From an uncultured Anaerolineae bacterium (GTDB lineage: Bacteria; Chloroflexota; Anaerolineae; JAADDB01), in contig CAYPUG010000003.1 in the NCBI GenBank assembly GCA_964413905.1, positions 17,896 to 59,599 of the forward strand: a stretch of DNA of 41,704 bases. Direction: 5' to 3'. The translations under genes were made by a program, and so were the position numbers. This document shows, piece after piece, positions 2 to 33,658 of this stretch. The notes under the pieces are model-generated. The model was not told the origin of the DNA, made no database searches, and saw nothing but the letters and a program-made list of their open reading frames with translations. Numbering within the stretch: position 1 is the stretch's first letter; every line of letters begins with the position of its first letter.

Positions 2-1231
2 GATGTGCGGGGACGAGTGCACATGATCGGATATGTAGAGGATGAGATGGTGTACACGCTCATGCGTGGAGCCTTGGCTCTGACGTTTCCTTCCTTGCAT
101 GAGGGATTTGGGTTCCCGGTTTTGGAAGCGCAGGCCCTGGGCGTGCCCGTGCTCACCTCCTCCACTTCCAGTCTGCCTGAAGTGGCGGAGGACGCGGCCT
201 TGCTGGTGGACCCTACGGACACGGACGCGATAGCCGTGGGCTTGCGTCGACTCATGCAGGAGCCGGCCCTTCGGGTAGACCTGGTCCGTCGCGGCCTGGA
301 GAACATCTCCCGTTTTTCCTGGGAACGCACGGCCGAAACCATTCTCGCCCATCTCCTCTCGCTCACTTCCCCATCACGCGCAGGTGTGAAGCATCCCAAA
401 CCTTCTTTGGTGTTGCATACTGACCTTTCCGAAAATGGGCTCTCCGGGTGGAGCGATGAGGAGAAGACCTTTGCTCCTGGCGGGGATACTCGATTTCCTT
501 ACGTGGACATTCTCGGAGTACACGTGCACCGGTTGACGTTCGCCCAGGCGTTGGACGAAATTCAGCGCATGATAGAGCAAGGGGAAAAGGGGTATGTGGT
601 CACCGCGAATCCTGAGATTATCATGCGGGCCCAGGATGCCCCTGAGTACCGGAAGATTCTTAACGCTGCGTGCATGACCTGGCCTGACGGAGTCGGGGTC
701 CTGATGGCCGGACGGTTCCTGGGCGCCCCCATCCCGGAGCGAGTCACCGGATCCGATGGTGTCCCCCTGCTGGCTCAGCGCGCGGCAGAGCAGGGTTGGC
801 GGGTGTACTTGCTGGGTGCAGCGCCTGGGGTAGCGCAACGCGCGGCGCAGGTTCTTCAGGAGCGATATCCGGGGCTACAGGTTGTGGGCGCGGAGCCGGG
901 GGATCCCCGTCCGGAGTTCGATGAAGAGATGGTCCGGCGTATCAACGCGACCCGTCCTCATCTTCTCCTCGTCGCGTACGGCGCGCCCAAACAGGAACAG
1001 TGGATGGCGCGGAACCTCCCCCGATTGCAGGTCAATGTGGCCATCGGCGTGGGCGGAAGTCTGGACTTCATTGCGGGCGTCCAAAAGCGCGCACCCGTGT
1101 GGGTGCGGCGGGTGGGTCTGGAGTGGCTATGGCGTTTGGTGTTGGAACCTTGGCGCTGGCGGCGTCAGTTGGCATTGCCGCGTTTTGTCTGGCACGTGCT
1201 TCGTCGGGGGAGACCTCGGTCCAGGGGATAG
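2..1231 (+). CDS. 5'-truncated GT4 glycosyltransferase (C-terminal half) fused in frame to a WecB/TagA/CpsF (GT26) glycosyltransferase
   Basis: Frame is open from the window edge. GT4 motif FPSLHEGFGFPVLEA...GVPV, then a ~45 aa linker, then TagA motifs VTANPE, PDGVGV, ERVTGSD, GAPKQE, GVGGSLDF and GLEWLWRL. Confidence 0.88.
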   Translation, partial: DVRGRVHMIGYVEDEMVYTLMRGALALTFPSLHEGFGFPVLEAQALGVPVLTSSTSSLPEVAEDAALLVDPTDTDAIAVGLRRLMQEPALRVDLVRRGLENISRFSWERTAETILAHLLSLTSPSRAGVKHPKPSLVLHTDLSENGLSGWSDEEKTFAPGGDTRFPYVDILGVHVHRLTFAQALDEIQRMIEQGEKGYVVTANPEIIMRAQDAPEYRKILNAACMTWPDGVGVLMAGRFLGAPIPERVTGSDGVPLLAQRAAEQGWRVYLLGAAPGVAQRAAQVLQERYPGLQVVGAEPGDPRPEFDEEMVRRINATRPHLLLVAYGAPKQEQWMARNLPRLQVNVAIGVGGSLDFIAGVQKRAPVWVRRVGLEWLWRLVLEPWRWRRQLALPRFVWHVLRRGRPRSRG

Positions 1232-1288
1232 GGGGATAGTCTCCCCGACGCCTGGCTATTCCTGCACAATGCTTTCAATGCTCTATAC

Positions 1289-1358
1289 CTGATGGACTGC
1301 TAAAACTCCATGTATGCACCTTGACTTAAAAAGGGCAGGGGAATTTCTACCCAATCAG
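1289..1358. repeat. Family A element, degenerate copy
   Basis: ctgatggactgctaaaactccatgtatgcaccttgacttaaaaagggcaggggaattt...caatcag aligns with the family start ctgattgactgacaaaactctgcgaatg..cttggcttagaaag seen at 41651 and on the minus strand of 22823-22886. Confidence 0.75.
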
Positions 1359-1473
1359 ATGAGGGTAACAAGCCATATCCCACGCCGACCACCGTTTTGA
1401 TGTACCACGGGTTTTCGGCATCATCGCCCAACTTCCGCCGCATCGATGATCTCCGGGATGTGTTCCGAAGTAC

Positions 1474-1502
1474 TTGACAAGCCCATGCCCTGTTCCTATA
1501 AT
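1474..1502 (+). promoter_or_regulatory. Sigma70-type promoter of the ABC operon
   Basis: Perfect TTGACA (1474-1479), 17 bp spacer, TATAAT (1497-1502). Confidence 0.85.
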
Positions 1503-1517
1503 TTACTCAATCTGAGG

Positions 1518-1652
1518 CCGATTGACTGATAAAATGTTGTCCAATGGACCTTGGCTCAAAAGGAGAGATTCGTGAGATTTGCGTCGCCTTTGACGGCGAA
1601 AATCTCACGAATCATTTCTCTATGCAAAAAGTTCGAGGAGTCAGTCAATCGG
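1518..1652. mobile_element. Family A MITE/REP-like palindromic element
   Basis: Perfect 12-bp terminal inverted repeats ccgattgactga / tcagtcaatcgg. Internal perfect 14-bp inverted repeat gattcgtgagattt (1567-1580) / aaatctcacgaatc (1600-1613). Confidence 0.8.
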
Positions 1653-1724
1653 AACTCAAGTTCTCAAGCATAGATGCTATTCCCCCAATTGTTCCAGTCA
1701 TTTACTCTGAAAGGAGGAGAGGTC

Positions 1725-4241
1725 ATGCGTAAATTGAAGTGGTTTCCTCTCGTCGCGGTCCTCATTATTGCCGCCTTGGTGTTGGCCGCGTGTCCGAAAC
1801 CGACCCCTGAAAAGGTGGTCGAGACCGTGGTCGTTACCAAGGAGGTAGAAAAAGTCGTCACAAAGGAGGTGGAGAAGGTCGTCACCAAAGAAGTCCAGGA
1901 ACAGGACCAGTTGGACAAGTGGATGGCCAAAGGGAAGATCGTGGTCTCCACCGACCCGAATTATCCGCCTCAGTCCTTCCTCAATGATAAAGGGGAACTG
2001 GACGGATTTGATGTCGAAGTCGCGAAGGAAGTCGCCAAGCGTCTTGGTTTAGAATTGGAGTTCGTCACTCCCGATTGGGATCTCATCACCGCGGGGAACT
2101 GGGGTGGTCGTTGGGATATCAGCATCGGCTCTATGACCATTACCAAGGAGCGCATGGAGCGTTTGTATTTCACCGCGCCTTACTACTTCACCCCGGCCCA
2201 ATTCGCGGTCCACAAGGACAGCAAGGCCGAGACGTATGAGGACTTGAACGGCAAGAAGATCGGCGTCGGCACCGCGACCACCTATGAGGATTACCTGAAC
2301 GGCGTCCTCGAACTGGTGGGCGAGGAAATCTTGGTGCCGCCACCGCAGAACGTGGAAGTCGTACCCTACTCCACCGACGCGGAGGCCGTGCAGGACCTGG
2401 CCCTGGGCGACGGTGTCCGCCTAGACGCGGTCCTCACTTCCTTGACCGTGGTGGAGAACGCAATCAAGGAAGGCGTGCCCATCAAGAAACTGGGTGACCC
2501 GGTGTACTACGAGGACTTGGCGTTCGCACTTGACAAGTCCGCGGGGCCCGCCGACAAGGCGCTGGCCAAGTTGAACGAAATCATCGCGGGTATGCACGCG
2601 GATGGCACCCTGTCCGCGCTCTCCATGAAGTGGTTCGGCGTGGACCTCACCAAGAAGGTCGCGCCTAAGGCGATGAAGGAAGCGGGCATGGAGCAGCCGA
2701 GTACAGGCGAGGCAGCCGGCATCCCCGCCCCGAACCCGGATGCCAAGAGCCTGCTGCGGGGCGTGGAGAAGGTGGATGACTACACCGTCCGCCTCTACCT
2801 GAACCGGCCCAACGCGTCCCTCATCAACACCCTGGGTATGAACAACTTCGCGATTATGTCCCCGGCCGCCATCGAAAAGTACGGCCCGGACATCTTCAAG
2901 CACCCGGTAGGTACGGGGCCCTTCAAGTTCGTGGAGTGGATCCCCAACGACAAGATCACGTTGGAGCGCAACGACGATTACTGGGGTGAGCCCGCGAAGC
3001 TAAAGACTCTCGTCTTCCGCTCCATTCCGGACAACACGGCCCGCTTCCTGGAGCTGCAGGCCGGTACCATCGACGGCATGGACAACCCCAACCCGGATGA
3101 TATGCCCGTCGCGGAGAAGGACCCCAACATCCAGGTGCTCCTGCGGCCGGCCTTTAACGTGGGTTACCTGGGTATCAATCAGGCGCACAAGCCTTTCGAT
3201 GATGTGCGCGTGCGCAAGGCCATTGCTCATGCCATCGACAAGAAGGCCATTGTGGATGCGTTCTACAGCGGCCTGGGCGAGCCGGCCAAAGAATTCATGC
3301 CCCCCAGCCTCTGGGGCTACAACCCGGACATCGAGGACTACGCTTACGACCCCGCGAAGGCCAAGGAACTCCTGGCCGAAGCCGGCTATCCCGATGGCTT
3401 CGAGACCACCCTGTGGGTGATGCCGGTGCCGCGACCCTACTTCCCGCAGCCGCAGCAGGTGGGCGAAGCGATCCAGCAGATGCTGGCGGATGTGGGCATC
3501 AAGGCCAAGATCGTGACCAAGGACTGGGGCACCTACCTGGACGAGGTGGCCGCGGGCAAGGCCGACCTGTTCATGTTGGGCTGGACGGGCGACAACGGTG
3601 ACCCGGACAACTTCCTCTGTGTGTTCTTCTGTGGCGGTGACAACTCCTTCGCCCAGGGGCCGCCGGATGAGGAACTGCATCAGTTGCTCCTCAAGGCCCA
3701 GTCCGAGACGGACCAGGCCAAACGCGAGGAGATGTACAAGGAAGCCAACGCCATGATCCATGACATCGTCCCCGGCGTGCCCGTGGTGCATACCAAAGTG
3801 CCTCTCTTCTTCAAGAAGACTATTAAGAACTACATCCCCAGCCCCATGAGCATTGCCCGCTGGGATCTGGTCGAGAACGAGGCCGGCGATACGGCCATCT
3901 TTGGTCGTGGCGGTGACTCGGTGAAACTCGACCCCTCCGATGCCACCGACGGCGAAAGCTTGAAGGTGACGGCGCAGATCCTGGAGGGATTAGTCAAGTA
4001 CAAGCCGGGTACCACCATCCCTGAACCGGGCCTGGCCGTCTCCTGGGAGGCCTCGGATGACGGGTTGGTGTGGACCTTCCACCTGCGCAAGGGCGTGAAG
4101 TTCCACGACGGCACCGACTTCAACGCGGACGCGGTTGTGTACAACTTCATGCGCTGGTGGGATCCGAATCACCCGGCGCACTTCGCGGACTGGGCCTTTG
4201 ACTACTGGGCCTACATGTTCGGCGGGTTCAAGGGAGAGTAA
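1725..4241 (+). CDS. Lipoprotein ABC substrate-binding protein: SBP_bac_3 (polar amino acid type) domain plus circularly permuted SBP_bac_5 (DppA-like) domain
   Basis: RBS AAGGAGG then ATG 1725. Lipobox LAAC and VVTKEVEK repeats. Family 3 motifs YPPQSF, GFDVEVAKEVAKRLG, IGSMTITKER. Family 5 motifs PVGTGPFKF, FDDVRVRKAIAHAID, and at the C-terminus LDP..., LAVSWEASDDGLVWTFHLRKGVKFHDG. Confidence 0.93.
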   Translation: MRKLKWFPLVAVLIIAALVLAACPKPTPEKVVETVVVTKEVEKVVTKEVEKVVTKEVQEQDQLDKWMAKGKIVVSTDPNYPPQSFLNDKGELDGFDVEVAKEVAKRLGLELEFVTPDWDLITAGNWGGRWDISIGSMTITKERMERLYFTAPYYFTPAQFAVHKDSKAETYEDLNGKKIGVGTATTYEDYLNGVLELVGEEILVPPPQNVEVVPYSTDAEAVQDLALGDGVRLDAVLTSLTVVENAIKEGVPIKKLGDPVYYEDLAFALDKSAGPADKALAKLNEIIAGMHADGTLSALSMKWFGVDLTKKVAPKAMKEAGMEQPSTGEAAGIPAPNPDAKSLLRGVEKVDDYTVRLYLNRPNASLINTLGMNNFAIMSPAAIEKYGPDIFKHPVGTGPFKFVEWIPNDKITLERNDDYWGEPAKLKTLVFRSIPDNTARFLELQAGTIDGMDNPNPDDMPVAEKDPNIQVLLRPAFNVGYLGINQAHKPFDDVRVRKAIAHAIDKKAIVDAFYSGLGEPAKEFMPPSLWGYNPDIEDYAYDPAKAKELLAEAGYPDGFETTLWVMPVPRPYFPQPQQVGEAIQQMLADVGIKAKIVTKDWGTYLDEVAAGKADLFMLGWTGDNGDPDNFLCVFFCGGDNSFAQGPPDEELHQLLLKAQSETDQAKREEMYKEANAMIHDIVPGVPVVHTKVPLFFKKTIKNYIPSPMSIARWDLVENEAGDTAIFGRGGDSVKLDPSDATDGESLKVTAQILEGLVKYKPGTTIPEPGLAVSWEASDDGLVWTFHLRKGVKFHDGTDFNADAVVYNFMRWWDPNHPAHFADWAFDYWAYMFGGFKGE

Positions 4242-4252
4242 AGAACGTTCGA

Positions 4253-4279
4253 GGGAACGGGGGCATCGCCTCCGTTCCC
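4253..4279 (+). terminator. Hairpin after the SBP gene (partial terminator or mRNA stabiliser)
   Basis: gggaacgggggc-atc-gcctccgttccc 12-bp stem with one G-U pair, weak U tail. Confidence 0.55.
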
Positions 4280-4315
4280 CCTGTCTTATTCCCACATTGG
4301 AGCGTATCGACTTTA

Positions 4316-5236
4316 ATGAGTCCACGGAAACGGGAACCAACACGGACCAGCAAGTTTGGCGTCTCCGTTCGCGAGAGCCATGATGCCTCACTTTTTTATA
4401 ATCGCAGCCTGTACGCGGACGTCCCGCAAGAGCAACCTGGCCGGTATGTGGAGAACCCTATTCCGTCGGACGTCCTGGATACCGTCATCCTATCTTCCGC
4501 GGAACACATGGCGAACTTGCCCGACAACAGCGTCCACCTAATGGTCACTTCCCCGCCCTACAATGTGGGGAAAGAGTACGACGACAACTTGTCCCTGGAC
4601 GAGTACCTGGCTTTCCTCCGGCGAGTGTGGGAAGAGGTCTACCGGGTGCTGGTGCCCGGGGGACGGGCGTGCATTAATGTGGCGAACTTGGGGCGAAGGC
4701 CGTATTTGCCCTTGCACGCGTTTATCATTCAGGACATGTGGACTATCGGTTTCTTGATGCGGGGGGAAATTATTTGGGATAAGGGCGCGAGCGCGGGCAT
4801 TTCCACCGCGTGGGGCAGTTGGATGTCTCCCACAAACCCCGCGTTGCGGGATACACATGAGTACATTTTAGTGTTCTCCAAAGGGACGTTTCGCCGTGCG
4901 AATCCCTTCAAACGCAAGGCCACGATTCGAAAGGAAGAATTCCTGGAGTACACCAAGAGTGTGTGGCATTTCCCTCCTGTATCCGCGAAGAAAATAGGTC
5001 ATCCGGCTCCCTTTCCGGTAGAATTACCTTATCGACTCATTCAGTTGTACACATTCGCCGGCGAGGTTGTATTGGATCCCTTCATGGGGAGTGGTCAGAC
5101 TGCTCTGGCCGCGATTCGGACAGGACGGCATTTTGTCGGCTATGAGACCGTAGCGGAATATGTGGCCTTGGCCCATGAGCGCATCCAAGCAGAACGGGAA
5201 CGGATAACTTCATCCACCCGGCTTGAGGGGACATGA
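4316..5236 (+). CDS. Site-specific DNA methyltransferase, N4-mC/N6-mA, beta class (orphan)
   Basis: Catalytic motif VTSPPYN precedes HPAPFP and the SAM-binding VLDPFMGSGQT. Confidence 0.92.
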   Translation: MSPRKREPTRTSKFGVSVRESHDASLFYNRSLYADVPQEQPGRYVENPIPSDVLDTVILSSAEHMANLPDNSVHLMVTSPPYNVGKEYDDNLSLDEYLAFLRRVWEEVYRVLVPGGRACINVANLGRRPYLPLHAFIIQDMWTIGFLMRGEIIWDKGASAGISTAWGSWMSPTNPALRDTHEYILVFSKGTFRRANPFKRKATIRKEEFLEYTKSVWHFPPVSAKKIGHPAPFPVELPYRLIQLYTFAGEVVLDPFMGSGQTALAAIRTGRHFVGYETVAEYVALAHERIQAERERITSSTRLEGT

Positions 5237-5239
5237 GCG

Positions 5240-6244
5240 ATGATACGGTATATTGTTCAACGTTTGCTTCTATTAATTCCTGTCCTTATTGGGATTTCCA
5301 TCATCACATTTGTAATGATCCGTCTGATTCCGGGGGACCCGGCCCGCATTATGGCCGGTGAGCGGGCCACAGAGGAACAGGTGCAGCGCGTGCGCGAGAT
5401 GTGGGGCCTGGACAAGCCCCTCCACGAGCAGTATCTCGTGTACATGCGCAACTTGCTTCACGGCAACATGGGCCGCTCCCTCAAGCGAAATGAGGAGGTC
5501 ACCGAAGAACTGCGCTGGGCCCTGCCCACAACCATTGAGCTGGCATTTTCCGCCATGTTTGTTGCCATCCTTATTGGCATTCCCGCGGGCATCATTGCTG
5601 CCTACAAGCAGAATTCCTGGTGGGACCTGATTGTCATGGTCGGGAGCATGGTGGGTATTTCCATGCCTGTCTTCTGGCTGGGGCTTCTCCTCATTTACGT
5701 ATTTGCCCTCAAACTGGGATGGATGCCCCCTTCAGGGCGGTTGAGTGTGGGGATCAAAATTACGCCGATTACGGGAATGTACACGGTGGATGCTCTGTTG
5801 ACCGGAAACTGGCGCGGGCTCTTGGATGCGGTAAAGCACCTGGCCATGCCTGCTATCGCTGTGGGCACCATTCCCATGGCCATTATCGCCCGCATGACCC
5901 GCAGCAGCCTGCTGGAGGTGCTGCGCCAGGATTACATCCGTACGGCCCGGGCCAAAGGACTCAACGAACGCACGGTCATTTTCCGCCACGCGCTGAAAAA
6001 CGCGTTTCTGCCCGTGATCACTATCATCGGCCTTCAATTGGGTACATTACTGGTAGGGGCCATTTTGACAGAGACCATTTTCTCCCTACCCGGCATGGGG
6101 CGTCTCATTGTAGACCGTATTTTGTCCCGTGATTATCCGGTGGTTCAAGGCGCGGTGCTGGTCTTTGCGACCACCTTTGTGTTTATCAATCTCCTGGTGG
6201 ACTTATCGTACGCGTATCTGGACCCACGGATTCGCTATCAATGA
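5240..6244 (+). CDS. dppB: Dipeptide/oligopeptide ABC permease DppB/OppB
   Basis: N-terminal PGDPA motif, multiple TM segments, DYIRTARAKGL loop, C-terminal LDPRIRY. Confidence 0.92.
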   Translation: MIRYIVQRLLLLIPVLIGISIITFVMIRLIPGDPARIMAGERATEEQVQRVREMWGLDKPLHEQYLVYMRNLLHGNMGRSLKRNEEVTEELRWALPTTIELAFSAMFVAILIGIPAGIIAAYKQNSWWDLIVMVGSMVGISMPVFWLGLLLIYVFALKLGWMPPSGRLSVGIKITPITGMYTVDALLTGNWRGLLDAVKHLAMPAIAVGTIPMAIIARMTRSSLLEVLRQDYIRTARAKGLNERTVIFRHALKNAFLPVITIIGLQLGTLLVGAILTETIFSLPGMGRLIVDRILSRDYPVVQGAVLVFATTFVFINLLVDLSYAYLDPRIRYQ

Positions 6245-6268
6245 GGTTTGGATGGGGTCTTCCAATTT

Positions 6269-6330
6269 CTCGGCGTAAAGGGAGAATTGCGTTAAGGTGC
6301 ATACGCGGCGTGTTGTTGGTTAACCAACAC
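6269..6330. repeat. Family A element, internally deleted degenerate copy
   Basis: ctcggcgtaaagggag...aaggtgcatacgcggcgtgttgttggttaaccaacac matches the reverse complement of the 34083 copy (ctcggcgtaaaaaaaggag...aaggcccattcgcggcgtgttgtcagtcaatcaacac). Confidence 0.7.
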
Positions 6331-6364
6331 GAGATTTTACACTCTTGCTTATGGGGACGAGTTT

Positions 6365-7375
6365 ATGACAATAACAACTTCGCGCGTGGCCGAATTCGAT
6401 ACGGAATTGCCCCCGCATGTGGGATATTTCCGTGACGCGTGGCGACGGCTAAAGCGTAATAAGTTAGCCATCGCGGGGATGGTGATTTTGGGTTTCTTTG
6501 TCTTCTTGGCCCTTTTCGCGGACACATCGCTCTTTGTCGCACCCCGCACGCTGTTCCAGGTCGATGTTCACAAGACCGGCATAAATCCTATCGCGTTCCT
6601 CAAGGAATGGCATACGTTGACCAAGGAGGAGGCTAAACCTTTGCTGGCTCCTTATAGTCCCACAAAGGCCTTCCTCCGCCTGCGTAAGGCACCTCCGTCG
6701 CGAGAGCATCCGTTAGGTATGGATGAAGTGGGACGGGATATGCTGAGCCGCATCATTTTTGGCGCTCGGGTATCCCTGCAGGTGGGTATCTTGTCGGTGT
6801 TGGGAGCAATTCTGGTGGGTACCGTCATTGGCGCGGTCTCAGGCTATTTGGGCGGGTGGGTGGACAACGTTGTCATGCGCTTAATGGACATCCTCCTCGC
6901 GTTCCCTAGCCTGCTTTTGGCCCTGGCCATCGTCACTATTTTGGGACCCGGATTGCTCAACATGCTTTATGCTATCGCTATTGTGTCTATCCCCACCTAC
7001 GCGCGCCTGGTGCGCGCTTCGGTCCTGGCCGAGAAGGAAACGGACTACGTGTTGGCCGCGCGGGCGGTGGGGGCCAGTGGGCCCCGAATTCTCTTCCGGC
7101 AGATCATGCCCAACGCGTTGACACCCATTTTAGTCCAAGGTACTTTGGGCATCGGCACCGCGATTTTGGACGCGGCCGCGTTGGGCTTCCTGGGCCTAGG
7201 CGCGCAGCCCCCAACACCTGAATGGGGGACCATGTTGAGCCGTGCACAGCAGGTGTTCTTCTCCGCGCCGCACATCGGTATCTTCCCAGGTTTGGCCATT
7301 ATGCTCACCGTGCTGGGCTTTAACCTGCTGGGTGATGGCCTTCGGGACGCGCTGGATCCCCGCCTGCGGATGTAG
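6365..7375 (+). CDS. dppC: Dipeptide/oligopeptide ABC permease DppC/OppC
   Basis: WRRLKRNKLA, HPLGMDEVGRDMLSR, YVLAARAVGA, PPTPEWG, GDGLRDALDPR. Confidence 0.92.
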   Translation: MTITTSRVAEFDTELPPHVGYFRDAWRRLKRNKLAIAGMVILGFFVFLALFADTSLFVAPRTLFQVDVHKTGINPIAFLKEWHTLTKEEAKPLLAPYSPTKAFLRLRKAPPSREHPLGMDEVGRDMLSRIIFGARVSLQVGILSVLGAILVGTVIGAVSGYLGGWVDNVVMRLMDILLAFPSLLLALAIVTILGPGLLNMLYAIAIVSIPTYARLVRASVLAEKETDYVLAARAVGASGPRILFRQIMPNALTPILVQGTLGIGTAILDAAALGFLGLGAQPPTPEWGTMLSRAQQVFFSAPHIGIFPGLAIMLTVLGFNLLGDGLRDALDPRLRM

Positions 7376-7390
7376 GAGGATCTGTGTTTG

Positions 7391-7630
7391 CTGACTGACT
7401 GGTGAGATTTTAGCCGCCTTCAGCGGCGAAAATCCCACGGATTTCTACTCCTCAGTCAAGCATCATTTGACAGAAAAGGCGGTTTCGTCGGGAAGTCCCA
7501 TGTTGCCGAATCAAGCCGTCTGCATAGCCGTGGGTAGGCGAAGGCACTGCCTTCGCCGAATCTATTTGCAGAGTTTCATCCATCATTCCATGGTTGACGG
7601 AGTACTCTTCTGCTTTTACGCCAAGGTACA
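7391..7630. repeat. Cluster of repeat-element pieces between convergent dppC and holA: family A core, GTAG-REP-like hairpin and family A arm remnants
   Basis: ctgactgactggtgagattttagccgccttcagcggcgaaaatcccacggatttctactcctcagtcaag (7391-7460); gggtaggcgaaggcactgccttcgcc (7532-7557); tttacgccaaggtacata (~7615-7632). Confidence 0.75.
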
Positions 7631-7635
7631 TAAGG

Positions 7636-8643
7636 TTATCCTGCCAGTTGAACGACGAGAATTTGCAACGCGAGAACAGGGTCGATTTTCCCTTGTTTGA
7701 TGTGGGCGTCCACCTCCAGGAGGTGCTCCATCACCCGTTCTAGATAACGCCAGGGAAGGCGTCGAGCAACGTTTAAGTCCCGTTTGACCGTCCACGCCGG
7801 GATGCCTATGGCGGAAGCCATTTCGTCGGGGCGCAGGCCCTGTTCGGCGAGATCTTTTAAGCCGATGTAGATACGATATTGACGGATGATGAGCGCCAAG
7901 ATCTGCAGAGGATGTTGACCGGACGCGAGGTTTTGTTGTAATAGCGTGACAGCTTGGCGTGCGTTGCGTTGCCCTATTGCGGTTATCATCTCGAAAACGC
8001 TGGCTTCACGGGTGTAGGGAACCAGCGTGTGTACCACGTCCGGGGTGATATACCCCTTCTCTCCCACATATACTCGTAATTTCTGTAATTCCTGATCCAA
8101 CAGCCGAAGATTGTGCCCCAAGGCATCTGTCAAAAGGCGTACCGCCTGTGGGTCAATCTCCGCACCGTAAGCGCGTGTTCGGGAACGAATCCATTTCATC
8201 ACGAATTCCCGGCGGTCACGGGCACGGCTGGGCAGGATGAAGGAACGAATTTCGGCTTTTCCCTCCTCGGCTAACGCGGTGATGGTTTTCAAAACCGGGT
8301 GTTTGGATGAGAGCGGTACGGTTTCCACGAATACGAGGTGCGTGCTCTCCGGCAGGGAAAGGAGGTATTCGGCCAAGGCCGCGGCCATCTCCTGCGCTCG
8401 TACACTCCCGGGTCTTAAATCCTTGGCCAGCGCATCCAGCCAACCGTGTACAATAACCAAACGTGTATCTCCCAGGAACGGCACTGTATCCGCGTGGTCG
8501 CGAAGCAGCGTCAAATTGGGTGGGGGATCCAGGTGGACCACATTTAGATCTCCCAGCCCTGTATCCCCTAGCACACGCGAGCGCAGCTCTTGCACGTTTT
8601 CGCTAATAGTAAATTCGTCGTCGCCGTGGAGTAACGTAATCAT
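7636..8643 (-). CDS. holA: DNA polymerase III delta subunit
   Basis: LLHGDDEF start, TVPFLGDTRLVIV, NLRLLDQELQKL, VFEMITAI, LLEVDAHIKQG. Confidence 0.92.
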   Translation of the reverse strand: MITLLHGDDEFTISENVQELRSRVLGDTGLGDLNVVHLDPPPNLTLLRDHADTVPFLGDTRLVIVHGWLDALAKDLRPGSVRAQEMAAALAEYLLSLPESTHLVFVETVPLSSKHPVLKTITALAEEGKAEIRSFILPSRARDRREFVMKWIRSRTRAYGAEIDPQAVRLLTDALGHNLRLLDQELQKLRVYVGEKGYITPDVVHTLVPYTREASVFEMITAIGQRNARQAVTLLQQNLASGQHPLQILALIIRQYRIYIGLKDLAEQGLRPDEMASAIGIPAWTVKRDLNVARRLPWRYLERVMEHLLEVDAHIKQGKIDPVLALQILVVQLAG

Positions 8644-10818: not shown

Positions 10819-12090
10819 CTACCCTTTAATGCGTAAGAACTTGCGGCGCCCCACACGAAGTACGTGTTCCCGACCGTCGGGGGTGAAGATGGCGTTGATA
10901 TCCGTCACCTTCTCCCCGTCCAATTGGACCCCCCCTTGCTGAATGAGTCGTCGTATCTCACTCTTACTCTTGGCCATCCCCGCGGCCGCGGCAATGTCCA
11001 CAATGCGCATAGGTTCGTTGACCGTGAACTCGGGCATCTCTTCGGGGAGGTCCCGTTGTTGGAACACGCGTATGAAGTGCGCTTCAGCCCGTTTGGCTGC
11101 TTCCTCACCGTGGAAGATGCTCACAATTTCCCGGGCCAATTCCATTTTGACGTCCCGGGGATGACGTCGGCCCTCCTTCAAATCGCGTTCTATTTGGTCG
11201 ATTTGATCCGGCTTGTAGCGTGTAACCAGTTTGAAGTAGGTGATCATCACGTGATCGGGCAAACTCATCACCTTGCCGTACATGTCCTCGGGGGAGGCCA
11301 TGATGGGGATGTGATTACCCAGGCTCTTGCTCATTTTCAGGACACCATCGGTTCCCGGCAGAAGAGGCACAATGATGGCCACTTGGGGGCGTTGACCGAA
11401 CGCCTCTTGTAATTTTCTCCCCGCGACTACGATGTTGAATATCTGATCCGTGCCGCCGATTTGAACGTCCGTTTCCAGAGCTACCGCGTCATATCCTTGC
11501 ATGAGCGGGTAGAAGAATTCGTGCAAGAAGATGGCGTCTCCCTTGTCATAGCGCTTGCGGAAGTTTTCCCGAGCCAGAAACTGTTGTACCGTAAAGTTGG
11601 CCGCGATGTGAATGAGTTCGCCGAACGTCAATTTTTCCAGCCACTCATGGTTGTAGCGAATGACCGTCTTTTCGGGGTCGAGGATCTTAAAGGCCTGGTC
11701 CGTGTACGTTTTCGCGTTGGCCATGATAGTATCTAAATCCATGATGGCGCGGGCCTTATCCTTATCACTGGGGTCCCCAACCAGACTGGTAAATGTGCCG
11801 ATGAGGAAGATGGCCGTGTGACCCAATTCCTGGAATTGGCGCAGTTTGCGCATAGGCACAGTATGACCCAGGTGCAAGTCAGACGTGCGTGGGTCTACGC
11901 CCAAGTAGACCCGTAGGGGTTTGCCCGTGCGTTGAGATTCGATAAGTCGGGCACGCAGTTCATCCTCCATGCGTTGTCGCAATTGCTCCGCGTCCGGATC
12001 CCCTTCGGGGCCGTACTGGCATCCCTGCATCAGGTAACGGACCTGTTCGTCAATGCTCATGGTGGCAGCCAAATTTTCCTTCTTCTCCAT
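10819..12090 (-). CDS. tyrS: Tyrosine--tRNA ligase
   Basis: GVDPRTSDLHLGH, YPLMQGYD, QIGGTDQ, KMSKSLGN, C-terminal S4-like domain. Confidence 0.96.
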   Translation of the reverse strand: MEKKENLAATMSIDEQVRYLMQGCQYGPEGDPDAEQLRQRMEDELRARLIESQRTGKPLRVYLGVDPRTSDLHLGHTVPMRKLRQFQELGHTAIFLIGTFTSLVGDPSDKDKARAIMDLDTIMANAKTYTDQAFKILDPEKTVIRYNHEWLEKLTFGELIHIAANFTVQQFLARENFRKRYDKGDAIFLHEFFYPLMQGYDAVALETDVQIGGTDQIFNIVVAGRKLQEAFGQRPQVAIIVPLLPGTDGVLKMSKSLGNHIPIMASPEDMYGKVMSLPDHVMITYFKLVTRYKPDQIDQIERDLKEGRRHPRDVKMELAREIVSIFHGEEAAKRAEAHFIRVFQQRDLPEEMPEFTVNEPMRIVDIAAAAGMAKSKSEIRRLIQQGGVQLDGEKVTDINAIFTPDGREHVLRVGRRKFLRIKG

Positions 12091-12115
12091 GGATTTCCAT
12101 CCCCCATCAACGTGA

Positions 12116-13906
12116 TTAGGCCAACTTCTCTAATTCATCTACCATATCTTTAACCACATCAAACCCTTTTTGCCAAAAATCGGGAGATGTGATGTCCACC
12201 TCCACTTCGGCCAGGATCTCCTGCGGCCGAGCCGATCCTCCGTACGAGAGCAACTTGATGTACTTGGGTTTGAACGATTCTCCCTCTTCTTTGTAACGTC
12301 GATACAAGGCGAGCACCAGCAATTGGCCGAAACTGTACGCGTAACAGTAGAAGGGGGTGTGGTAGATGTGAGGAATACTTACCCATTCGTGCTGGAACTC
12401 GTCGGAAATTTCAACACTGTCGCCGAATTGATCTCGGAGGTTCTCCATGTACATGTGGTTCAAATCGGCCGCGGTGGCACTGTCGCGGTTGATGGCGTCG
12501 TGCGCCTGCAGTTCAAACAGCACAAAATAGGCTTGACGCATGACCGTGGCGTAAATATCGTCCACGGAGGCGGCTAACAAGTTCCGTCGCGCGAGAGGAT
12601 CACTTTCCTCTTCGAGGAGTCGGTCTGTGAGTAACATTTCGGAGAACACGGACGCGGTTTCGGCCAAAGGTAAGGGGGGATGCTGTGTGAACACGTTATG
12701 GTGCTCGGCCAACATACTGTGAATCGCATGGCCCAGTTCATGGGCCAGCGTCGCCACATCCCGCAGTCGTCCGGTGAAGTTCACCAGCACCCACGGTGTG
12801 AAATCCGGGGTCACGGTCATGCAGAACGCTCCCCCCCGTTTGCCCGGCCGCACTTCACTGTCGATGTGGTGCTCCTGGAACACCCGTTCCGCAAGTTGGG
12901 CCATGCGGGGCTCAAACCGATTTAATGTGTCCAACACGAGGTGGACGGCTTCCTCGTAAGAGACCCGTTTATCCGATTCGGCCAGGGGCGCGTAGATGTC
13001 GTATCGGCGCAGTTTTTTCATTCCCAGCCAGCGGGCCTTGAGTCGAAAATATCGTTGGAACAAAGTCCGGTTCTCTCGGGCTACTTGGAGTAGGACGTCC
13101 ACGGCTTGGTCGGGGATGTCGTTGAACAGGTTCCGCACCGCGATAGGCGAAGGAAAACCGCGGAGTCGCACGTTCTCATTATACCAATCCCGCACGCGAT
13201 GTGTGTACATTTGGGCGAGGAGGGGGGATTCCTTTCCGTACACGCGGTACAATTCCCGATATGCCGCGGCCCGCAAGTCCGGATTGGGAGAGTGCACATA
13301 CGCCATGAGTTCATCGCGAGTGAGGTGTTTCTCCTCGCCGTCTACCTCCAAGGTGAACTCGAAGCGATTGGTGTGCATTGCGTAGAGGGTGAGGACGGCT
13401 TGAATGCCATCCGCGTCCTTCAGGTTAATGATCTGTTCGGATTTTTCGTCCAGTGTAAAGGGCTTGAACCGGCGTAACGTGAGCAAATAATGCCGGAAGT
13501 CCTGATATTCATCCCCTTTAGGTAACAAGCGTTCGGCTTCCCGGTCATCCAGGGCTTTCCACCAGAGTTCAAAGAAGAGCAGGCGATTTTGGTAATCGGT
13601 GAGAATTTGTCGGACACGATTTAGAAGAGCCAGCGCGTCCGGCGATTGTGTGTTCTCAGAAAACCAGAGGTGCGCGAAACCGCCCAGGACGTGCAATTCC
13701 CGCACAATAGATTCCAATTGCTGCAATAAGGAGAGGAACTGAGCGGGATCCATGTCCGGGCGTAACGTCTCCCGTGCTGCTTCAAAGGCACTCACCGCGG
13801 CTTCTAAACGTTGTAGGCGTTGATTGAGGGCCTCTTGCCGCGGTTCCGGTAGAAGTTCGGACAGGTCCCAACGTCCGAGTGGATATGTGTGATTCGGTGT
13901 GGACAT
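12116..13906 (-). CDS. pepF: M3 family oligoendopeptidase F
   Basis: WDLSEL, GKRGGAFC, zincin motif HELGH, LAETASVFSE, HIYHTPFYCYAY. Confidence 0.92.
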   Translation of the reverse strand: MSTPNHTYPLGRWDLSELLPEPRQEALNQRLQRLEAAVSAFEAARETLRPDMDPAQFLSLLQQLESIVRELHVLGGFAHLWFSENTQSPDALALLNRVRQILTDYQNRLLFFELWWKALDDREAERLLPKGDEYQDFRHYLLTLRRFKPFTLDEKSEQIINLKDADGIQAVLTLYAMHTNRFEFTLEVDGEEKHLTRDELMAYVHSPNPDLRAAAYRELYRVYGKESPLLAQMYTHRVRDWYNENVRLRGFPSPIAVRNLFNDIPDQAVDVLLQVARENRTLFQRYFRLKARWLGMKKLRRYDIYAPLAESDKRVSYEEAVHLVLDTLNRFEPRMAQLAERVFQEHHIDSEVRPGKRGGAFCMTVTPDFTPWVLVNFTGRLRDVATLAHELGHAIHSMLAEHHNVFTQHPPLPLAETASVFSEMLLTDRLLEEESDPLARRNLLAASVDDIYATVMRQAYFVLFELQAHDAINRDSATAADLNHMYMENLRDQFGDSVEISDEFQHEWVSIPHIYHTPFYCYAYSFGQLLVLALYRRYKEEGESFKPKYIKLLSYGGSARPQEILAEVEVDITSPDFWQKGFDVVKDMVDELEKLA

Positions 13907-30959: not shown

Positions 30960-31715
30960 TTATTCGGTCGTGATCAACCGACGTACGGCTTGAGTCAGGT
31001 GGCCGAATTCCGGCGTGGCCATCATGTCCAGCGTGCGGGGTCGGGGCAAATCGACGAGTACTTCCCCTGCGATCCGGCCCGGCCGCGGGGTCATCACCAG
31101 TACCCGGTCGGAGATAAATACCGCTTCGCTGATGCTGTGGGTGACCATCAGCGCGGTTTGACGGCGATGGGCCCATATGCGCAAAAGTTCCAGGTTCATG
31201 CGCTCCCGGGTCAGCGCGTCCAGTGCGCCGAAGGGCTCATCCAGCAGGAGGAGTCGCGGATCATACACCAGGGCCCGGGCCAGCGCGACCCGCTGCTGCA
31301 TCCCGCCGGACAGTTGGCGCGGATAGGCGCGCTCGAACCCGTCCAATCCCACCAGCGCAATGTACTCCTTCGCTTGCAGGTCCGCCTCCTCCCGGGACAC
31401 GCCGAGAATCTCCAGGGGCAGGCGCACGTTCGCCAGCACTGTGCGCCAGGGCATCAAATTCGCTTGCTGAAACACCATCCCCACTTCCCGGCGGGGACGG
31501 TACAGAGGGCGCCCGTCCACGTACACTTCCCCCTCTGTGGGGACCACCAGGCCCGCCACAATGCGCAGTAACGTGGACTTCCCACAGCCGGACGGTCCCA
31601 CCAGGGTGACGAACTCTCCCTCTTGAGCTTTCAGATAGACATTTCGCAGCGCCCACACCGGTGGGTCATCGGTGAAGCGATGGCTTAGGTTGCGAATCTC
31701 CAAAAAAGCCCTCAC
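30960..31715 (-). CDS. ABC ATP-binding protein, NitT/TauT family (riboflavin transporter ATPase)
   Basis: [31 protein letters not shown]. Start set at GTG 31715, uncertain. Confidence 0.92.
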
Positions 31716-31746
31716 AGGCGTATCCCTTTTCCTAAAAGAAGAGGTG

Positions 31747-31777
31747 CGCCGCATGGCACCTTGAACGCCATGCGGCG
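31747..31777 (-). terminator. Hairpin after the binding-protein gene
   Basis: 11-bp inverted repeat cgccgcatggc / gccatgcggcg with a pyrimidine tail on the minus strand. Confidence 0.55.
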
Positions 31778-31793
31778 TTGGTTTTCTCTTCAC

Positions 31794-32798
31794 TCAAAAG
31801 CCGGCCCGTTTGACAAAGTCGTTGGTCGCGATGTTCGTCACGTCCACGTGCGTATCCAAAAGGTCCATCTCTCGCAGGAATCGTTCTGCTATCTCCCACG
31901 TGTCCAGGTCGGTGTGCCCCAACTTGCGTCCTTCCTTGGGCGTCCACAGGGGCAAGGACGCGTCGAACACCGCGCGGCTGACTTTTTCCTGTTCCCCGCC
32001 CGCCTCGGGCACGTGCTTTAGCGCAATGTGGAAAGCTTCGTCGGGATGGTCCAGCGTGTATTGGATCCCTCGGAGGATGGCGCGTGTCATGCGGGTAACC
32101 AGGTCAGGATCCTGTTGGATGAGTGTCTCACTGGTGACCAGGCCGTTCGAGGGAAGGTCTACGTAGTCAGCCACGGGAAACACGACCACCTCCTTGCCGG
32201 CCAGGCGCAGCCGCACGGGACCGTTGACAATGTAGTCCATGGCCGCGTCCACCTTTCCTTCGCTGACCGCGGCCGCCTGGGTGAAGCCGATGCTTTCCAC
32301 CTTCACCTTGGTCTCATCAATGCCCGTCGCGTAGACAATGGCTTTCCAGCCGATGTAGGTGGCCCCAAAAGGCCCCGGAACGCCCAGGGTTTTCCCTTCC
32401 ACATCCTTGGGGGAGGTCATGCCGCTGTCCTTCAGCGCGAACATCCCCACCGGAAACCGACTGTACCATTGCGCCACATACGTCACAGGCAATCCGCGGG
32501 CCCGACCGAGGATGACCTCTTCGCCGGAGGCAATCACGAAGGGAATTTCGCCCGCGGCCACCAGTTTGAGGAAATCCGTCTCAAACCCGTGGCGGAACTC
32601 CACCTCCAGCCCTTCATCCGCGAAGAAGCCTTTGTCCTGGGCCACGTAAAAGGGGGCGAATTGCACACTAGGGATGTAGCCCAGCGCGAGGACGATGTGT
32701 CGAGGGGTGCTCTGACTGCTCGGGGGCGTGGCCGGCGCACAACCGGCCAGCAAGGCCAGTACGAGAATAAGAAGGGTGAATCTGTAGACGTGTTTCAT
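31794..32798 (-). CDS. ribY: NMT1/THI5-like ABC substrate-binding lipoprotein, riboflavin-binding RibY type
   Basis: Lipobox LAGC, GYIPSVQFAPFYVA..KGFF. Lies under an FMN riboswitch. Confidence 0.85.
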   Translation of the reverse strand: MKHVYRFTLLILVLALLAGCAPATPPSSQSTPRHIVLALGYIPSVQFAPFYVAQDKGFFADEGLEVEFRHGFETDFLKLVAAGEIPFVIASGEEVILGRARGLPVTYVAQWYSRFPVGMFALKDSGMTSPKDVEGKTLGVPGPFGATYIGWKAIVYATGIDETKVKVESIGFTQAAAVSEGKVDAAMDYIVNGPVRLRLAGKEVVVFPVADYVDLPSNGLVTSETLIQQDPDLVTRMTRAILRGIQYTLDHPDEAFHIALKHVPEAGGEQEKVSRAVFDASLPLWTPKEGRKLGHTDLDTWEIAERFLREMDLLDTHVDVTNIATNDFVKRAGF

Positions 32799-32827
32799 TG
32801 TCTCAAATCCTCCTCGTTGATAGAGAT

Positions 32828-33658
32828 TTAATCAATATCCCAGATGATAACGTGACGTTCCAGCCAACCCACCAAGGTGTACAGGGATACCGCGATCATG
32901 ACCAGTACCCCCAAAGTCACAAAGAGCAAGGCCGTGTCCAGGGTGCCCCGAGACGTCAGGTTAATGAGAAAGCCTAGCCCCTGGTCCGCGGCCACAAATT
33001 CCCCTACGACCGCGCCGATGACCGAGAGCGCGGTGCCGATTTTCAGCCCTCCAAAGAGGATGGGCAGGGCAGCCGGGACTTCCAGTTTGGTGAAGATCTG
33101 CCAGCGGTTCGCGTTCAATACCCGCATCAGGTCCATCAGTTCCTGCTCCACAGAGCGAAAGCCGACCATGGTGTTCACCAGGACGGGGAAGAACAAGGTA
33201 AGCGCGGCCACCAGAATTTTGGACAGAAGTCCCGACCCGGCCCAGAGAATGATGAGGGGAGCAATCGCGACCACGGGGACCGCCTGCGCGGCCACCACGT
33301 AAGGGCCCACCAGTTGTTCCAGGAAGGGGCTCTTAGCCAGAAGGTACCCCAACACGGTGGCCGTGAAGAGCCCCAACCCCAGTCCCCCGCCGATTTCCAG
33401 GAGGGTGATCCGGGTGTGGCGCCACAGCGTTCCATCAGCCAGCGCGACGAGGAACTTGTGCCACACCTGCGCGGGCGCAGGCAGGATGTAAGGAGGATAA
33501 TGCTGCCAGCGGATCAATCCCTCCCAGGCCAGGAGGAAGACCCCAAACCCCAAAAGGGTGAACAGGATCCGGGTAAGCCGCGCCCCGGCCCATGTTACCG
33601 AGGGCCATGTCCCCCCTTTATCTGTCCATTTTTGCCAGGTGTCCTGCCAGCGCAGCAT
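32828..33658 (-). CDS. ribX: ABC permease, NitT/TauT family, RibX type
   Basis: ILPAPAQV, PVVAIAPL, PAALP, GAVVGEF..GLG. First gene after the FMN riboswitch. Confidence 0.85.
   Translation of the reverse strand: MLRWQDTWQKWTDKGGTWPSVTWAGARLTRILFTLLGFGVFLLAWEGLIRWQHYPPYILPAPAQVWHKFLVALADGTLWRHTRITLLEIGGGLGLGLFTATVLGYLLAKSPFLEQLVGPYVVAAQAVPVVAIAPLIILWAGSGLLSKILVAALTLFFPVLVNTMVGFRSVEQELMDLMRVLNANRWQIFTKLEVPAALPILFGGLKIGTALSVIGAVVGEFVAADQGLGFLINLTSRGTLDTALLFVTLGVLVMIAVSLYTLVGWLERHVIIWDID

Follow-up and report, generated by a model that had tools for sequence, protein, structure and literature searches.

A single gene in a 41,704-nucleotide (nt) stretch of DNA from an uncultured Anaerolineae bacterium (phylum Chloroflexota), here called the window, encodes a lipoprotein with two substrate-binding protein (SBP) domains of different classes: an amino-acid-type domain (SBP_bac_3, PF00497, hereafter SBP3; head 1), then a linker, then a peptide-type domain (SBP_bac_5, PF00496, SBP5; head 2) that is circularly permuted relative to DppA. 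We confirm that this receptor is a genuine cross-class fusion of PF00497 and PF00496 domains on one lipoprotein. Genes for DppB-type and DppC-type permeases lie downstream. The reading that we favour, and consider probable, is that of a lipid-anchored two-headed receptor feeding two ATP-binding cassette (ABC) importers. A strong pattern of gene linkage and orthology, drawn from sequence comparisons, points to it; the docking of the heads, their substrates and the use of an ATPase in trans are what we infer within it.

Results

The cross-class fusion is conserved and under selection

Both domains were recognised by Pfam within one open reading frame (ORF) with no internal stop (E 3.8e-37 for SBP3, 4.2e-115 for SBP5), as the original prediction, made from the DNA letters, had described. 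The same uninterrupted gene, with the domains in the same order, was found in five species-level relatives (L016-L020, 88-97% identity), where dppB and dppC, but no ATPase gene, come after it. In 5/5 family-level genomes, the best PF00497 match fell within an open frame of 830-856 amino acids (aa). Two public DNA runs, from two studies, have contigs that cover positions 1400-7400 with no insertions or deletions, and one run record spans 1400-4184 with no difference; at most one of the two runs is independent, since either may be the source of the assembly. A sequencing error between the domains, raised beforehand as a danger, is excluded by the uninterrupted gene of the five relatives, the two runs and dozens of fused database relatives.

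The source, G000, is a metagenome-assembled genome (2.73 Mb, 192 contigs, 97% complete), and an odd domain order could hint at a misjoin, two genes being read as one or an SBP5 domain being scrambled by misassembly. Given that the same gene and order recur in the assemblies of five species, in 5/5 family-level genomes and in 36 of the 120 best database clusters, that the contigs of two runs cross the head junction without insertions or deletions, and that the structure model (see below) folds confidently across the permutation joint, we consider the probability of such an artefact to be negligible.

Pairwise ratios of nonsynonymous to synonymous substitution (dN/dS) against the five relatives ranged from 0.006 to 0.044 in the SBP3 head, and from 0.016 to 0.081 in the two parts of SBP5. 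The SBP3 values were as low as, or under, those of the SBP5 parts, except in the comparison with L018. These ratios are rough because dS was high (0.46-2.7), but their direction is clear: both heads are under strong purifying selection.

Head 1 and the circularly permuted head 2

The likely true start of the receptor gene is the ATG at 1725, preceded by a ribosome-binding site (AAAGGAGGAG); it yields a product of 838 aa, and a database copy of that length (P0006) begins at the same ATG. No membrane domain was found in the receptor protein, only a predicted lipobox, the motif LAAC. An AlphaFold2 model was built on an alignment of 36 fused relatives, with a mean predicted local distance difference test (pLDDT) score of 86.6 and a predicted template modelling score of 0.61. 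The pLDDT fell below 50 only at the first four residues, at residues 22-56 (the tether between lipid anchor and head 1) and at residues 315-331 (the inter-head linker; 838-aa numbering), a pattern which fits two folded heads on flexible strings. The VTKEVEKV-type repeats of the tether also follow the lipobox of another lipoprotein of the genome (contig C116, 7956-8369), and look like a lineage-specific spacer module for surface proteins.

Head 1 scored 127.4 bits against PF00497 (cut-off 26.4), over positions 1-131 of the 132 of the profile, and had a confident fold in the model. Its closest solved relatives were the tandem substrate-binding domains (SBDs) of GlnP (6h30, 3.5e-29) and the reconstructed AncQR (4zv1, 2.9e-28), with an amino-acid binder of Thermus (3vv5) also among them. 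No named equivalog was reached: models for cystine, Lys/Arg/Orn, His, Gln and Arg binders were compared, all scores were under cut-off, and the best was that of the cystine-binding model (134.6 bits versus a cut-off of 312). The segment SMTITKER of head 1 aligns with AGMTITEER of AncQR and GlnP SBD1, the Arg of the TxxR motif being kept. The Thr and Arg of this segment and the two Thr of a GTATT motif (T138, R143, T185 and T186, 838-aa numbering) do not vary among the 36 fused relatives. In SBP_bac_3 proteins, the TxxR Arg and the Thr/Ser pocket residues presumably hold the alpha-carboxylate, and the ligand of head 1 probably carries a carboxylate.

Head 2 matched PF00496 in two stretches, with 385.2 bits (cut-off 32.4). 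The best stretch, aa 358-657, corresponds to positions 62-366 of the 368 of the profile, and N-terminal positions of the SgrR/DppA profile matched aa 754-829. The usual N-terminal ~115-121 residues therefore sit at the C-terminus, behind a four-residue joint (NEAG), and for this reason we call the head circularly permuted. The two sides of the joint correspond to the C-terminus and the N-terminus of canonical relatives, and the moved piece, which precedes the middle part in those relatives (P0124, P0125 and 50 fused ones), follows it here.

The kinship of head 2 with DppA was seen both in sequence and in the model. With phmmer, aa 359-729 aligned with residues 122-500 of DppA (1dpp) at E 2.5e-90. 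The best Foldseek matches were DppA structures from Yersinia and E. coli (5f1q, 1dpe, 1dpp; E 4e-38 to 2e-37), at 37-39% identity over ~390-430 aligned columns, and the next one was the glutathione-binding GbpA; the template modelling scores to DppA, 0.61-0.67, are target-normalised, and both the permutation and the additional domain of the query bring them down. The segment MPVPRPYFP lies opposite MPVQRPYNP of DppA, with R355 and Y357 identical, and GWTGDNGDPDNF is identical to DppA 404-415, D408 included. These three residues of E. coli DppA are, we assume, those which hold the dipeptide termini. Against the NCBIfam DppA equivalog, head 2 reached 394.7 bits, far under the cut-off of 1005, which we put down to permutation and divergence; we accordingly speak of a DppA-like head and not of DppA. 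Judged from sequence and model, both heads look competent, and head 2, though permuted, is complete.

Gene neighbourhoods in relatives

Genome contigs were searched with the SBP3 part, which gave 80 loci. ORFs of at least 100 aa were called, and neighbours were labelled by BLASTP (E <= 1e-6) to reference proteins of the window's own genome. Linkage was counted on the same strand and within 10 kb, in loci whose sequence ran on for at least 6 kb behind the focal gene; 7 of the 17 other fused loci and 14 of the 51 unfused ones had flanks too short for this and were not counted.

The three loci of the close clade all had DppB and DppC, and none had a HisM-type permease, a DppD/F-like ATPase or a GlnQ-type ATPase. 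A different picture came from the 10 other fused loci: a HisM-type permease was present in all 10, DppB in 9, DppC in 6, a DppD/F-like ATPase in 8 (7 true DppD/F, that of L124 being another kind of ATPase) and a GlnQ-type ATPase in 7, a count limited by the 3 loci which end at or in the permease. The SBP3 clade of head 1 also has unfused members, 55-73% identical to it. Across 37 loci with such an unfused single SBP3, a HisM-type permease was found in 30 and a GlnQ-type ATPase in 25; L116 is counted there as unfused, though it is actually fused. Feeding of two transporters, one of the possibilities listed in the original prediction, fits the HisM-type permease downstream in 10/10 distant fused loci and DppB in 9/10.

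Writing S1, S3 and S5 for the SBP1/8, SBP3 and SBP5 domains, B, C, D and F for the dpp genes, and M and Q for the HisM-type permease and GlnQ-type ATPase, typical operon orders are S3-S5, B, C, D, F, M, Q, seen in L122, and the longer sugar-type permeases, S1-S3-S5, B, C, D, F, M, Q, seen in L131 and L133. The fused loci L120, L124 and L141 have B, M and Q (C too in L120 and L141) and no DppDF. The unfused state is seen in L114, where S3 and S5 are two adjacent genes, both coding for a signal peptide of their own, at the head of the same kind of composite operon. L116 was rejected as a second example, its fused gene being broken by frameshifts in a long-read assembly. The original prediction had set weight on the missing ATPase. 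It is no special feature of the window: dppDF is also absent nearby in 3/10 distant fused loci and in 5/5 loci with a stand-alone permuted SBP5.

Candidate partner pumps in the genome

A single HisM-type permease of G000 passed the TIGR01726 cut-off (C45, 10830-11894). It is followed by a GlnQ-type ATPase gene (11919-12674) and preceded by a divergently oriented phosphoglucose isomerase gene, and no binding-protein gene lies beside the pair. A polar amino acid permease operon lacking an SBP, which the original prediction had proposed to look for, is thus present once. PF00497 found two domains only in the genome, head 1 and a 277-aa protein (C3, 5810-6643) encoded 12 kb upstream of the window, which is anchored by a transmembrane (TM) helix, 24% identical to head 1 and without the conserved Arg. 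Next to this stand-alone SBP3 gene and an amidohydrolase gene, and ~13 kb upstream of the window, lies an unusual permease-peptidase fusion, a 1199-aa frame (C3, 869-4468, minus strand) with DppB-like, DppC-like and C-terminal peptidase M28 parts.

For 17 distant loci, of which 14 are fused or composite and three are unfused with S3, M and Q, the best matches of the neighbouring genes in G000 were determined. The permeases matched the C45 permease at 57-62% over the membrane core, with no second one among the matches listed, and the GlnQ-type ATPases matched the C45 ATPase at 63-69% over their full length, the next match being at ~38-42%. For the B and C genes of distant fused loci, the best match was the dppB (39-55%) and the dppC (45-60%) of the window. 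In all 5/5 family-level relatives the fused gene and the M-Q ortholog are on different contigs. The permease orthologs are 75-96% identical, Q adjoins in the four that were checked, and the pump ortholog is intact in G000, G001, G003, G006 and G007. No SBP3 gene was seen in the fetched flanks of the M-Q orthologs in G003, G006 and G007.

Three DppD/F-type pairs were found with PF08352 (contigs C2, C68 and C116), for at least five DppBC-type permease sets. The C116 pair was the best match for 13/17 distant DppD/F ORFs, the other 4 being near-ties with the C2 or C68 pairs; where the head of the locus is permuted, it matched at 53-59%, and the pair that came second at 43-47%. At the end of the C116 contig the gene for a canonical SBP5 lipoprotein begins, with the tether repeats of the receptor, and the equivalent of the pair in G003 lies in an operon of the order sugP-sugP-S1-(D)-F-S5-B-C. 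On both grounds C116, the best candidate for the orphan dppDF which the original prediction had proposed to look for, was rejected as an orphan pair. No joining of C116 to contig C83 by exact end overlap was seen.

A complex of head 1 with two copies of the C45 permease core was predicted with purpose-built alignments. It scored 0.53, versus 0.02 for the best control; the runs agreed in at least 83% of contacts, with a partner pLDDT of at least 87. The score mark was passed by 58/80 solved complexes and 2/110 mismatched pairs, and the passes at 0.60 or under comprised 7 of the 80 solved complexes and both mismatches. Since similar complexes have been solved, likeness alone may account for the pass.

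The HisM-type permease linked to these receptors is, in many Chloroflexota, 630-1060 aa long and carries a WD40 propeller (Pfam E 1e-27 to 7e-50) of ~350 aa between TM1 and TM2, with the membrane core behind it (L122:16725-18986, L100:10893-14078, L105:10985-13264, L103:17122-19290, L131:16674-18983, L107:18897-20786). The propeller is probably outward-facing, because it is placed between the first TM helix and the core. The permeases of G000, the C45 ortholog included, have no propeller. Some DppB-type permeases of ~780 aa have a ~500-aa insert in the outside loop between TM1 and TM2 (L107:12464-14815, L111:12350-14686, L117:3191-5485); only a weak Reg_prop match was found in this insert, which may be a second extracytoplasmic scaffold.

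Distribution of fusions and permutations

A word-index search of a protein database gave 7607 proteins at E <= 0.001 among 8000 scored candidates, and the 120 best clusters were classified by BLAST of three query pieces. SBP3 followed by canonical SBP5 made up 50 clusters, and SBP3 followed by permuted SBP5 36, the window's own included. There were 25 SBP3-SBP3 tandems and 6 clusters with an extra N-terminal domain ahead of SBP3-SBP5 (five PF13416, one PF13458/PF01094), and SBP5 stood alone in 3, two canonical and one permuted. SBP3+SBP5 fusions thus account for 92 of the 120 (53 in canonical order, 39 permuted; 6 of the 92 three-headed). Where fused clusters have names these are generic, and the organisms are Anaerolineae or Chloroflexota; 22/22 fused loci of the genome contig search bear Chloroflexota-lineage titles.

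Stand-alone permuted SBP5 genes were found in five loci (L024, L030, L064, L067, L088), all from Chloroflexota. Among the fetched loci, the permuted DppA-like fold, fused or stand-alone, was seen in Chloroflexota only (protein P0115 has it too); a wide spread outside this phylum was rejected, 70/70 non-Chloroflexota-type loci being canonical on re-analysis. Since fused canonical and unfused permuted SBP5 both exist, permutation and fusion are independent of each other. The idea that the permutation may make the fusion geometry workable, put forward in the original prediction, finds no support in these counts, with 53/120 best clusters fusing a canonical SBP5 and permuted SBP5 also found unfused.

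In L103, permuted and canonical fused genes stand in tandem. A second SBP3 clade (P0007, P0098, P0101, P0106-P0122), 30-35% identical to that of the window, has the permuted SBP5 clade of the window as its fusion partner (52-80% identity to the SBP5 of the window), so that swapping or fusion of heads must have happened repeatedly. Lipoproteins with three heads, 1260-1290 aa long and made of SBP_bac_8/1, SBP_bac_3 and SBP_bac_5 domains, were also seen (P0035, P0040, P0052, P0067, P0092; loci L120:8564-12442, L131:8537-12331, L133:8498-12331 and L128:4871-8752). Their genes lie directly 3' of two sugar-type permease genes and 5' of dppBC(DF) and HisM/GlnQ-type genes, i.e. one chain beside three permease sets. 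P0104 (1132 aa) has a Peripla_BP_6/ANF_receptor-type domain as its extra head instead.

In the full-text literature searched, whose coverage stops short of subscription journals and supplements, no description of cross-class fused binding proteins or of permuted peptide-binding proteins was found. As far as searched, the architecture is common in Chloroflexota and held in databases under generic names, yet has no printed description. The claim of an undescribed system therefore stands as far as the literature was covered.

Layout of the locus

The features around the receptor gene are listed in Table 1. A Pfam scan was made of 35 selected long non-overlapping ORFs of the window, each of at least 90 aa.

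Table 1. Features of the receptor gene and its surroundings (window positions).
Feature	Position	Strand	Remarks
Promoter-like site, TTGACA-17-TATAAT	1474..1502	+	12/12 consensus positions; upstream of receptor gene
Receptor ORF	1674-4241	+	855 codons, no internal stop
Signal peptide with lipobox (MRKLKWFPLVAVLIIAALVLAAC)	1725..1793	+	lipobox LAAC (…LVLAAC)
Tether, predicted disordered, VTKEVEKV-type repeats	1794..1925	+	between lipid anchor and head 1
Head 1, SBP_bac_3, two-lobed amino-acid-type binding domain	1938..2639	+	aa 89-322, E 3.8e-37
Inter-head linker, Pro/Ala/Gly/Glu-rich	2640..2744	+	predicted disordered
Head 2 first part, SBP_bac_5 middle and C-terminal portion	2745..3875	+	~ E. 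coli DppA residues 122-500
Permutation joint NEAG, old C-terminus to old N-terminus	3876..3887	+	...SIARWDLVE-NEAG-DTAIFGRGGD...
Head 2 second part, SBP_bac_5 N-terminal portion, then stop	3888..4241	+	relocated to C-terminus
Stem-loop, 12 bp, GC-rich	4253..4279	+	12 pairs, 9 G-C; directly 3' of receptor gene
N6_N4-type DNA methyltransferase gene, 306 aa	4316..5236	+	Pfam PF01555 E 7.9e-48
DppB-type permease gene	5240..6244	+	BPD_transp_1 3.9e-44 + BPD_transp_1_N
DppC-type permease gene	6365..7375	+	BPD_transp_1 5.5e-36 + OppC_N

The promoter-like site, a perfect match to the sigma-70 consensus, is the sole such match in 1200-7800, where shuffled sequence averaged 3.2 weaker sites (by consensus match only). 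This predicted promoter would leave a ~220-nt leader ahead of the receptor gene. No Rfam family was found at E <= 1 in 1200-7800, leader included, which speaks against a riboswitch or leader RNA there; a regulatory leader at 1474-1724 is a possibility. No RNA data for the locus were found among the public runs listed as holding sequence. The T tail of the stem-loop behind the receptor gene is weak (CCTGTCTTAT), and the stem-loop is a possible partial terminator or mRNA stabiliser.

The permease products scored 356 bits (DppB) and 306 bits (DppC) against the corresponding NCBIfam models, under the equivalog cut-offs of 590 and 483. A convergent holA comes after dppC. No HisQ/M-type permease and no Dpp/Opp-type ATPase (dppD/dppF) was found by Pfam in the 35 ORFs, the sole other ABC set in the window being of NMT1 type (30960-33658, minus strand). 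The operon had been described as holding DppB/DppC-type permeases only, which is right for these absences but overlooked the methyltransferase gene, which separates the receptor gene from dppB and stops 4 nt short of the latter. This gene is a passenger in the locus, not a transport part. In five close relatives, the same slot holds a methyltransferase in 2/5 and a thiol-peroxidase-like ORF in 4/5: the former is found in L096 as in the window, the latter in L017, L098 and L099, and both in L097. The methyltransferase has a TSPPY motif and no nuclease gene adjoining (orphan type). Homologs were found at L114:15916-16812, at L199:6785-7867 (minus strand) and in G000 itself (C82:9902-10690), and in two distant relatives the homolog ends a composite transporter operon (64% identity in L199).

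Discussion

In the explanation that we favour, the flexible tether would hold two independent binding domains at the cell surface, as beads on a string. The DppA-like head would capture dipeptide-like ligands and dock on the downstream DppB/DppC, which would borrow a DppD/DppF-type ATPase pair encoded elsewhere, that of C116 being the closest to the pairs linked in relatives. The SBP3 head would capture a carboxylate-bearing, amino-acid-like ligand and dock on the only HisM-type permease of the genome, with its GlnQ-type ATPase (C45). The fusion would have arisen from neighbouring genes of a composite operon, S3, S5, dppBCDF, hisM-like and glnQ-like, which still exists in other Chloroflexota. 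In this lineage, the operon would later have been dispersed, leaving the receptor with dppBC, an SBP-less C45 pump and DppDF pairs elsewhere, while the space between receptor gene and dppB would have turned into a variable slot. The fusion of S3 and S5 would then be a Rosetta-stone case. The most likely mechanism is an additive one, in a fusion that is widespread.

Several observations weigh against this explanation. In this genome and its five closest relatives, the receptor gene is unlinked to a HisM-type permease or to DppDF, and for that reason the pairing of receptor and pump rests here on orthology with distant loci, in which labelling by own-genome references is crude and missed DppC in 4/10 loci and one ATPase. 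Genes for a methyltransferase or a thiol peroxidase break the array of receptor and dppBC in the window and in 5/5 close relatives; with these non-transport genes and the stem-loop in between, co-transcription is not assured. The use of the C116 DppDF pair by the window's DppBC is a guess, since the G003 operon has its own set of SBP5, B and C. The 277-aa SBP3 protein could serve the C45 pump instead; its low identity to head 1, its lack of the conserved Arg and its TM anchor make it the less likely natural partner. The score of the predicted complex of head 1 with the C45 permease is in a weak range, and lends weak support. Finally, head 1 reads DAVLTS where AncQR reads DAVVTD, and its whole SBP3 clade has Ser or Ala in place of this lobe-2 Asp, which we take to hold the alpha-amino group in amino-acid binders. 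Because the clade is without this Asp, the ligand of head 1 may be something other than a plain, standard alpha-amino acid. The second SBP3 clade fused to SBP5 (P0098, P0101) keeps the canonical Asp.

Other explanations were weighed. Only the DppA-like head might be a transport receptor, the SBP3 head acting as a sensor input, as a spacer or solubility module, or as a ligand trap for DppBC. Such a role would agree with the unlinked HisM-type permease and the missing Asp, and SBPs are known to feed signalling proteins (review PMC8050422). It is, in our opinion, rather unlikely, as a HisM-type permease follows the same SBP3 clade in 30/37 unfused and 10/10 fused loci, the genome keeps an SBP-less ortholog of that very pump, and the Pfam scan of the window ORFs found no sensor kinase, chemoreceptor or cyclase gene adjoining the receptor gene. 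We know of no mode by which SBP3 proteins dock on DppBC-type permeases. Two further suggestions of the original prediction, a sensor and the handing of amino acids to a peptide permease, found nothing in their favour, and the HisM/GlnQ-type linkage argues against both. The loss of that linkage in this clade could also mean that the SBP3 head is decaying, as what is left of an ancestral fusion whose pump genes moved away. We disfavour this as very improbable: its dN/dS is low in all five comparisons, the pocket Thr, Arg and Thr-Thr are invariant, and this genome and four relatives have an intact pump ortholog.

A bolder form of the two-headed reading would be that the fusion is mainly architectural, the chain tying two ABC translocators (three in relatives) into a surface supercomplex, and thereby coupling the uptake of related nutrients both spatially and stoichiometrically; the covalent link itself would then be what counts, beyond a saving on anchors. 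Fusions are recurrent with different partners (SBP3-SBP3, SBP3-SBP5 with SBP5 in both orders, SBP1/8-SBP3-SBP5) and composite operons encode all the matching permease sets, but the long disordered linkers are compatible with independent action and L114 has the genes unfused. Likewise, the WD40 propeller of the HisM-type permease and the ~500-aa DppB insert of relatives could be scaffolds, while the permeases of this genome are without propeller and its partner genes are dispersed. On balance we think a supercomplex unlikely. We are equally doubtful of its generalisation, namely that Chloroflexota chains of 2-3 cross-class heads (SBP1/8, SBP3, SBP5) bridge 2-3 ABC translocators into one uptake supercomplex, with extracytoplasmic permease propellers as docking scaffolds in many of them. 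Were the supercomplex to exist, the window protein would be a dispersed-gene member of the group, and its fusion would couple peptide uptake to amino-acid-like uptake.

Studies of how ABC importers are found and activated by their binding proteins have as their basis one protein, or one class, for each pump, and a cross-class chain is a direct test bed: are the heads independent or competing, and are two pumps brought together? One phylum offers a natural comparison set, with fused and unfused, canonical and permuted, two- and three-headed forms, and Chloroflexota are abundant in sediments, hot springs and wastewater sludge. For annotation, genes named 'peptide/nickel' or 'substrate-binding protein' hide an amino-acid-type receptor, and the matching pump then looks receptor-less. 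The permuted DppA fold is a further example of natural permutation in a well-studied scaffold.

Parts of this system resemble known importers. Compared with E. coli DppABCDF (1dpp/1dpe; complex 8z1z), the likeness lies in the 37-39% identity of head 2, the kept R355, Y357 and D408, and the DppB/DppC-type genes that follow; the differences are the permutation of head 2, its fusion behind an SBP3 domain, the lipid anchor, the absence of dppDF from the locus and the missed equivalog cut-offs. Head 1 recalls the polar amino acid transport (PAAT) importers (HisJ-HisQMP2, ArtJ/ArtI-ArtQN) by its SBP_bac_3 family and TxxR Arg, and its unfused orthologs adjoin just one HisM-type permease gene, together with a gene for a GlnQ-type ATPase. 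Unlike PAAT binders, its clade is without the Asp aligned with that of DAVVTD, head 1 is unlinked from its pump and fused to a peptide-type domain, and the permease of relatives has a WD40 propeller on the outside. Sharing of an ATPase whose gene lies elsewhere is known from the ABC importers served by MsiK in Streptomyces and MsmX in Bacillus subtilis, which are sugar (CUT1) systems. The window resembles them in having a permease operon without an ATPase gene, in a genome with 3 ATPase pairs for at least 5 DppBC-type sets; in contrast to those sugar systems, the pair that would be shared here is of DppDF type.

Tandem binding domains are textbook knowledge from GlnPQ, where they are of the same class, serve one translocator and are fused to its membrane domain. 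Like GlnPQ of Lactococcus lactis (6h30), the receptor has more than one binding domain per polypeptide, joined by a linker and held at the surface of a cell with no periplasm. Unlike in GlnPQ, its heads belong to two Pfam classes whose cognate permease families differ, and the protein is a free lipoprotein. What appears to be new here is this chaining of heads of different classes on a free lipoprotein, with up to three classes beside the matching permease sets in relatives.

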